Source: Escherichia coli
GTDB lineage: Bacteria > Pseudomonadota > Gammaproteobacteria > Enterobacterales > Enterobacteriaceae
Assembly: GCF_003334785.1 (NCBI RefSeq)
Contig: NZ_QOWV01000080.1
Length of the DNA: 632 bases
Direction: 5' to 3' (one strand)
The notes beneath the pieces are model-generated. The model saw only the letters and a program-made list of their open reading frames with translations, did not search any database and had not been told where the DNA came from. This document shows positions 1-632 of this stretch, one piece after another; positions within the stretch are counted from its first letter, which is position 1; each line of letters begins with the position of its first letter. The position numbers and the translations under genes are program-made.

Positions 1-3
1 GAA

Positions 4-93
4 TGGCCCTCCAACCGTGTTGACGAACTCCTGCCATGGAACGTAGTACTCACCAATAAATAAGCGTCAATACGGTGCTCCGTTGACGCTTAC
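4..93. repeat. Left arm of a long imperfect inverted-repeat pair bracketing the IS30 fragment
   Basis: Position p pairs with position 636-p of the right flank: 59/90 complementary by hand count, no gaps. Perfect blocks include 67-76 (tcaatacggt) with 560-569 (accgtattga), 87-93 (cgcttac) with 543-549 (gtaagcg), 4-8 with 628-632, 13-17 with 619-623, 37-41 with 595-599. Confidence 0.8.
61..92. repeat. Hairpin-forming inverted repeat inside the left arm: perfect 10-bp stem, 12-nt loop
   Basis: 61-70 taagcgtcaa is the exact reverse complement of 83-92 ttgacgctta; the loop is 71-82 tacggtgctccg. On the minus strand the stem is followed by TTTATT (complement of 55-60). The corresponding region of the right arm (544-575) does not form an equivalent hairpin. 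Confidence 0.7.
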
Positions 94-542
94 AGATGAA
101 ATGGTCTCCAGAGCAAATATCAGGATGGTTAAGGCGAACAAAACCACGTCAAAAAACGCTGCGAATATCACCTGAGACAATTTATAAAACGCTGTACTTT
201 CGTAGCCGTGAAGCGCTACACCACCTGAATATACAGCATCTGCGACGGTCGCATAGCCTTCGCCATGGCAGGCGTCATACCCGCAAAGGCGAAAGAGGTA
301 CGATTAACATAGTGAACGGAACACCAATTCACGAACGTTCCCGAAATATCGATAACAGACGCTCTCTGGGGCATTGGGAGGGCGATTTAGTCTCAGGTAC
401 AAAAAACTCTCATATAGCCACACTTGTAGACCGAAAATCACGTTATACGATCATCCTTAGACTCAGGGGCAAAGATTCTGTCTCAGTAAATCAGGCTCTT
501 ACCGACAAATTCCTGAGTTTACCGTCAGAACTCAGAAAATCA
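94..542 (+). mobile_element. Internal fragment of an IS30-family insertion sequence (transposase gene body only; neither IS terminus present)
   Basis: Translation of 96-542 matches, from my memory of the protein, the central part of E. coli IS30 transposase InsI (MKWSPEQISGWLRRTKPRQKTLRISPETIYKTLYF...GHWEGDLVSGTKNSHIATLVDRKSRYTIILRLRGKDSVSVNQALTDKFLSLPSELRKS). Upstream of 94 the frame hits TGA at 84-86 and the expected ...LVLEKLE is absent; downstream of 542 the expected ...LTWDRGMELA is replaced by unrelated sequence. No IS30 terminal inverted repeat is recognisable. Boundaries are approximate to within a few bases. Confidence 0.85.
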
Positions 543-569
543 GTAAGCGACTCGTCAGAACCGTATTGA
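96..569 (+). pseudogene. insI: Truncated IS30 transposase ORF (InsI-like): 149 internal codons fused to 8 flank-encoded codons (VSDSSEPY) and a TGA stop
   Basis: Supplied ORF track 96-569 (157 aa). Contains the HWEGD motif typical of the first catalytic Asp region of IS30-family DDE transposases but lacks the N-terminal helix-turn-helix region and the distal catalytic residues. The ATG at 96 is an internal Met of the native protein; the 15 bases upstream (ttgacgcttacag) carry no GGAG-like Shine-Dalgarno; in-frame TGA at 84-86. Confidence 0.8.
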
Positions 570-632
570 TATTTACTGAGAGCTCAGATCAACTTTCCAG
601 GGCAACAGATCGCGTACCCGGTTTGCCGGCCA
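543..632. repeat. Right arm of the same imperfect inverted-repeat pair; begins at the first base after the IS30 homology
   Basis: Reverse complement of 543-632 aligns ungapped to 4-93 at about 66 percent identity; the strongest blocks are 543-549 and 560-569. The arm reaches the window edge and may continue beyond it. Confidence 0.8.

Follow-up and report, generated by a model that had tools for sequence, protein, structure and literature searches.

Introduction

Intact IS30 has a whole transposase gene between terminal inverted repeats of 26 bp, and the elements of the IS66 family end in terminal inverted repeats of about 20-35 bp that begin 5'-GTAAGCG or GTAA. To our knowledge, the transposition chemistry and the target choice of the IS66 family are poorly understood. 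Its members have been described as multi-ORF elements of 2.7-2.8 kb flanked by 8-bp repeats, and the literature on their target preference gave us general family features only, with nothing on specificity (PMC3281130).

Among the closest described systems are the nested insertion sequences (ISs) of the IS-rich islands and virulence plasmids of Escherichia coli and Shigella, where IS30 copies broken by IS66-family elements at IS30 nt 113-120 (reference locus L006), 366-373 (L008) and 481-488 (L002 and L003) sit among remnants of IS3, IS110, IS91 and IS1. Composite transposons and MITE or foldback elements offer a further comparison, as they too have related IS ends inverted around a central segment.

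Here, we analyze a 632-nucleotide stretch of E. coli DNA (the window, by which we mean the whole stretch) that is made of the same building blocks, and in the same style, as these nested elements, and that differs from them in that two unlike IS66-family members meet one IS30 copy in opposite orientations, thus producing an apparent long inverted repeat. With a probability of roughly 0.9, we read it as an IS30 copy, represented in the window by its nt 481-929, that was broken twice by IS66-family ISs, an ISEc47/ISEc23-like element on the left and an inverted ISCro1 on the right.

Results

Complementarity is confined to two imperfect arms

The first-pass annotation had placed an axis of symmetry at position 318, at the window centre, and a scan of the anti-diagonals bears this out: the best pairing is that of position i with 636-i, for which 123 of 314 pairs (39.2%) are complementary, against a mean of 24.6% (s.d. 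3.2%) over all anti-diagonals with at least 100 pairs, while the adjoining anti-diagonals 634, 635, 637 and 638 reach only 21-26%. The strong complementarity reported at the outermost positions is equally real. Positions 4-8 (TGGCC) are a perfect complement of 628-632 (GGCCA), a 5-bp block that by itself has no meaning, and the best local alignment of the left half with the reverse complement of the right half spans 4-97 against 540-632 with a score of 31, compared with 11.2 ± 1.7 (maximum 22) in 200 shuffles.

The signal is carried by the outer arms, in which 62 of the 94 pairs with i = 4-97 are complementary (66%), whereas the inner pairs (i = 98-317; 61/220, 27.7%) lie at background. The window has two imperfect arms of ~94 nt, about 445 nt apart, and whole-window symmetry is absent. 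A single symmetric element covering 1-632 was considered and discarded, given the background level of the inner 220 pairs and the inward direction of the termini described below. A repeat search of the window did not list the arms as a single pair, because their identity (66%) lies at the ~65% limit of that search. A separate 11-bp perfect complement links the IS30 fragment (481-491, TCTCAGTAAAT) with the ISCro1 arm (571-581, ATTTACTGAGA) across 79 nt; chance alone would yield about 0.05 such pairs in a stretch of this length, and it is probably a coincidence.

The window is assembled from three known insertion sequences

A BLAST search against 5,426 complete E. coli genomes split the window into three parts, which carry the following features:

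1-60, plus strand: last 20 codons of tnpC of an ISEc47/ISEc23-like element, encoding EWPSNRVDELLPWNVVLTNK
61-63, plus strand: TAA stop codon of the left tnpC
64-93, plus strand: IRR (right terminal inverted repeat) of the left, ISEc47/ISEc23-like element, ending ...TTGACGCTTAC at 93
94-542, plus strand: internal IS30 fragment, nt 481-929 of 1221 bp, no IS30 end included
94-101, no strand: AGATGAAA, IS30 nt 481-488, putative inner copy of the left element's 8-bp duplication
96-569, plus strand: chimeric 157-aa open reading frame (ORF), IS30 transposase residues ~141-289 plus 8 codons (VSDSSEPY and stop) from the ISCro1 terminal repeat
535-542, no strand: GAAAATCA, IS30 nt 922-929, putative inner copy of the 8-bp duplication expected for ISCro1
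543-572, minus strand: IRR of ISCro1 (IS66 family), which begins GTAAGCGACTCGTCAGAACCGTATTGAT at 543 and faces left
573-632, minus strand: stop codon (573-575) and last 19 codons of ISCro1 tnpC, encoding WPANRVRDLLPWKVDLSSQ and stop

In the left arm, the DNA of 1-93 agrees with ISEc47 of strain E2348/69 at 92 of 93 positions and with ISEc23 at 91 of 93, in each case up to the last base of the element, and the translation (EWPSNRVDELLPWNVVLTNK and stop) agrees in every residue with the C-terminal end of the annotated ISEc47 and ISEc23 transposases. Read as its reverse complement, 64-93 gives GTAAGCGTCAACGGAGCACCGTATTGACGC, the terminus found in intact ISEc23, whose copy in reference locus L006 ends in ...CGCTTAC and is then followed by its 8-bp target duplication, GAACAGGC. 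In lambda-like phage records, the matches of the left arm end at 93. The right arm (543-632) is identical to the right end of ISCro1 at 90 of 90 positions, from the first base of GTAAGCG onwards, and ISCro1 ends that are 100% identical to it occur with differing flanks in thousands of E. coli records. Its first 30 nt (543-572, GTAAGCGACTCGTCAGAACCGTATTGATAT) are the terminus of intact ISCro1, confirmed at 4004 in reference locus L007, and its translation (WPANRVRDLLPWKVDLSSQ and stop) reproduces the annotated ISCro1 transposase exactly at the C-terminus. In phage records, the right-arm match starts at 542, which is 1 nt outside the terminus that we place at 543.

Compared with ISEc47/ISEc23 and ISCro1, the window is thus 99-100% the same over the last 93 and 90 nt, which comprise the TnpC C-terminus, the stop codon and the GTAAGCG repeat, and it differs in holding just these terminal ~90 nt of each. 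Both arms have a terminal repeat of the IS66-family type and, next to this right end, the family's DDE transposase TnpC, of which the window contains only the C-terminal tips; the tnpA-tnpB-tnpC layout within 2.5-2.7 kb is present in the reference copies of L006 and L007.

We also observed a perfect 10-bp hairpin in the left arm, formed by 61-70 (TAAGCGTCAA) and 83-92 (TTGACGCTTA) around a 12-nt loop and running from the tnpC stop into the terminal repeat. The ISEc47-like right end therefore has its terminal GTAAGCG motif repeated internally. The hairpin might act as a terminator or as an additional binding site for the transposase. The ISCro1 part of the window has no equivalent perfect hairpin.

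The central 449 bp (94-542) are 100% identical to many IS30 copies, and the match halts exactly at 94 and 542. We number IS30 from the intact 1221-bp copy in L004, in which the left repeat (TGTAGATTCAATTGG...) starts at 1021. The fragment keeps the IS30 transposase frame over residues ~140-289, and the encoded peptide scores 112.7 bits against the NCBIfam model NF033563 (transpos_IS30; cut-off 80). Relative to the 1221-bp IS30 of E. coli (IS30 family), the piece is the same over nt 481-929, a part of the transposase, and different in having neither terminal repeat: both the left (TGTAGATTCAATTGG...) and the right repeat were sought in the window and are absent, so this is no intact copy, and the transposase lacks its N-terminal ~140 and C-terminal ~95 residues. 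Because both terminal repeats and the ends of the transposase are missing, the fragment is unable to move or to encode an active enzyme. The chimeric ORF at 96-569 starts at an internal IS30 Met codon, and its exact 157-aa product is absent from a public gene-position index; we regard it, with near certainty, as a functionless side effect of the insertions, and as no gene in its own right.

Two paralogous IS66-family ends face the IS30 centre

The arms are complementary as paralogous IS66-family ends in opposite orientation. Both conserve the TnpC C-terminal motif WP-NRV--LLPW and the terminal-repeat blocks GTAAGCG ... ACCGTATTGA, and the 66% inverted repeat around the IS30 piece arises because two diverged ends of this family are placed in opposite orientations. 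As a proxy for the flanks, we aligned full-length ISEc23 (2,532 bp) with ISCro1 (2,699 bp). From the right end inward, the two share ~64% DNA identity over ~780 bp, with more alignable patches along tnpC and a stretch of 259 bp at 76% around tnpB, and the TnpC proteins of the left-type element and of ISCro1 are 51% identical over 532 aa. Overall, the two flanking elements are only ~64-67% identical, and their terminal repeats differ. If the flanking elements are complete, the inverted repeat would run on beyond the window at similar quality for another ~0.8 kb to the left and to the right, and in patches as far as ~2 kb.

The IS66-family termini lie at the inner edges of the arms (...CGCTTAC at 93 and GTAAGCG... 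at 543) and face each other; the IS30 centre is therefore interrupted target DNA that lies outside both elements, and not the interior of an element. This geometry bears directly on the first-pass annotation, which had taken the arms to run past the window edges as parts of a larger element whose true repeat ends, like any target-site duplication, would fall outside. The arms do very probably extend outwards, to judge from their match to the last 93 and 90 nt of elements of 2.5-2.7 kb, but the idea of one larger element is not supported. The transposon termini, at 93 and 543, are inside the window, and so are the expected inner copies of the 8-bp duplications, at 94-101 (AGATGAAA) and 535-542 (GAAAATCA), the latter taken as such because it adjoins the ISCro1 terminus; the outer copies of both fall outside.

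Intact reference copies have 8-bp duplications at exactly these termini, not only ISEc23 in L006 but also ISCro1 in L007 (GTTTATCA) and an ISEc23-like copy in L008 (AGACGCTA), and in their repeats, gene layout and size the reference copies agree with the published family features (PMC3281130). A common motif was sought among the five 8-bp targets (AGATGAAA, GAAAATCA, GAACAGGC, AGACGCTA and GTTTATCA), and this sample, too small for the purpose, gave no convincing consensus.

Taken together, we observe directly what the three pieces are and where exactly each begins and ends, that the termini point inward and that the arms are homologous, and on this a course of events can be proposed. An ISEc47/ISEc23-like element would have inserted at IS30 nt 481-488, duplicating AGATGAAA, and ISCro1 would have inserted in the opposite orientation at nt 922-929, duplicating GAAAATCA, both junctions arising by ordinary IS66-type transposition with 8-bp duplication. 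Outside the window, full-length IS66-family elements would follow on either side and then the remaining thirds of IS30; this proposed course also comprises the order of the two insertions, complete elements on both sides and the presence of the outer IS30 thirds. The sequences that would mark these outer parts are the left end of ISEc47/ISEc23, which starts GTAAGCGTAAAC, the IS30 sequence up to nt 488, which ends ...GGAAAAGCTGGAGATGAAA, and the far (left) end of ISCro1, which in window orientation ends ...CCGGTTAC.

The two junctions in sequence collections

Neither junction was found as a contiguous BLAST match in 5,426 complete E. coli genomes, 72,556 plasmids (PLSDB) and 50,697 phage records. 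A gapped pattern of both junctions at the right spacing had no exact match in the viral, genome and metagenome contig collections, and generic single-junction patterns had no match in the contig collections. The joins to IS30 nt 481 and nt 929, which occur in no searched collection, set the window apart from the described ISEc47/ISEc23 and ISCro1 copies. BLAST matches with an apparent coverage of 86% consist of two separate pieces, in which the distance from the IS66-family end to IS30 is 118-550 bp wider than in the window.

The loci of E2348/69 and of plasmid pB4.H1.17.c11 hold the same pieces as the window, in the same order and orientation and wider apart. In the plasmid, IS30 is interrupted at nt 366-373 by an ISEc23-like element, and 3.4 kb further downstream comes an inverted ISCro1.

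Alternative origins of the configuration

These two loci are also what gives substance to a different route to the same three pieces, in which one or both junctions were made by IS66-mediated rearrangement (a deletion or inversion beside an IS that already adjoined IS30, or homologous recombination between separate IS30 copies with one insertion each). In E2348/69 (L001 4001-4131), the ISEc47 copy whose end matches the left arm at 92 of 93 positions lies 37 bp outside the left end of IS30, in the same orientation, and a deletion of ~516 bp next to its right end would recreate the left junction. In pB4.H1.17.c11 (L008 4001-8186), where the ISEc23-like element and IS30 are followed by 3.4 kb of other DNA and then by the inverted ISCro1, loss of the DNA adjoining the ISCro1 end would likewise recreate the right junction. 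The content of the window fits both routes. The left junction, however, falls on the exact 8-bp site of simple, duplication-flanked insertions, which a simple insertion explains at least as well, and we consider rearrangement a possible but doubtful origin. Much less probable is an assembly or laboratory chimera of unrelated repeat copies. It would account for the failure to find either junction, or the whole configuration, in any searched collection, and all three pieces are high-copy repeats, the kind of sequence on which assemblers fail. Against this, each join sits precisely on the final base of an IS66-family terminus, one of them also on an 8-bp target that has been used independently in nature, and IS30 and the IS66 ends share at most ~3 nt at the joins, which argues against a k-mer misjoin; precise joins of end to target are the signature of transposition.

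That the window is the core of one larger element with long inverted repeats (a foldback, MITE-like or composite transposon carrying the centre as cargo) seems to us more improbable still. Complementarity of the arms is significant and extends to the window edges, and in formal terms a composite transposon, too, consists of a segment between two inverted ISs, but the GTAAGCG termini at the inner edges of the arms face the centre, the reverse of what a mobile unit carrying that centre needs, and the flanking ISs are different members of the family, only ~64-67% identical, with unlike terminal repeats. The window shows no outward termini of one and the same IS at its outer boundaries, the supposed cargo is a dead internal fragment of IS30, and no second copy of the IS-fragment-IS unit was found in the E. 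coli, plasmid, phage, viral, genome and metagenome collections. Compared with composite transposons and MITE or foldback elements, the window thus differs in its inward termini, its unlike ISs, a centre made of target DNA and the absence of any sign of mobility as a unit. Least credible of all, with hardly any weight in our judgment, is a functional long-range pairing of the arms as a large DNA hairpin or cruciform, or as a structured RNA: the minimum-free-energy DNA fold does pair the extreme ends and is marginally better than that of shuffled sequences (z = -2.3, 20 shuffles), but the centroid structure lacks most of these end-to-end pairs, the arms are only 66% complementary with 445 nt of unpaired centre between them, and the TnpC C-termini and transposase-binding ends fully explain the similarity of the arms. 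No Rfam family matched the window, the sole sub-threshold match being a microRNA with E = 0.11 and 20.7 bits against a gathering score of 71.

Repeated use of IS30 nt 481-488

The two simple insertions that we prefer are consistent with what is found at the left junction, which coincides to the base with the junctions of two further insertions of the IS66 family in IS30. Strains HL15 and SF10 (L002, two genomes) carry an element of 2,437 bp there, and TUM10008 and five other genomes (L003) an ISCro1-like element of 2,704 bp. In both, AGATGAAA is duplicated on the two sides of the element (L002, 1573-1585 and 4015-4030; L003, 1293-1305 and 4002-4017), and both elements are oriented opposite to the left element of the window. 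Because these two elements duplicate AGATGAAA at nt 481-488, the left junction of the window can be regarded as a bona fide IS66-family target. The three elements at this site (the ISEc47-like one of the window, that of HL15/SF10 and the ISCro1-like one) are at most ~70% identical to each other.

Other IS66-family insertions in IS30 were seen at nt 113-120, 366-373 and 922-929, and we roughly estimate the chance that three of six events fall on one exact site of a 1.2-kb target at ~1e-5. The 481-488 site lies inside the palindrome CTGGAGAtgaaatggTCTCCAG (CTGGAGA-tgaaatgg-TCTCCAG). We nevertheless put forward only tentatively, as a conjecture more likely to fail than to hold, that IS30 nt 481-488 (AGATGAAA, window 94-101) might be a true hot spot of IS66-family transposition.

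In HL15, TUM10008 and E2348/69, the interrupted IS30 is followed by the same partial 'transposase' pseudogene of ~258 nt. This points to a single old IS30 copy, in an island that these strains share, as the repeated target of different ISs of the IS66 and IS3 families.

Discussion

The window is ordinary nested insertion-sequence debris from E. coli-type DNA, of an already known kind. It is probably a structure without a function of its own, an inactivated IS30 in an IS-rich chromosome or plasmid of Escherichia/Shigella type, and its biological weight is small: it adds another dead IS30 to an IS cluster made of well-known E. coli elements.

It also carries a caution for the scanning of sequences, as an imperfect inverted repeat centred on a window can be two diverged paralogous IS ends placed in opposition. 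Whether the termini point inward or outward decides between a target lying between two elements and an element proper.

Were the site at IS30 nt 481-488 a genuine hot spot, it would mean that local sequence or structure guides IS66-family elements to their targets and that a site of this kind is present in IS30. Three unlike IS66-family elements in one exact IS30 target may thus offer, if the pattern holds up, a handle on target choice in this family.
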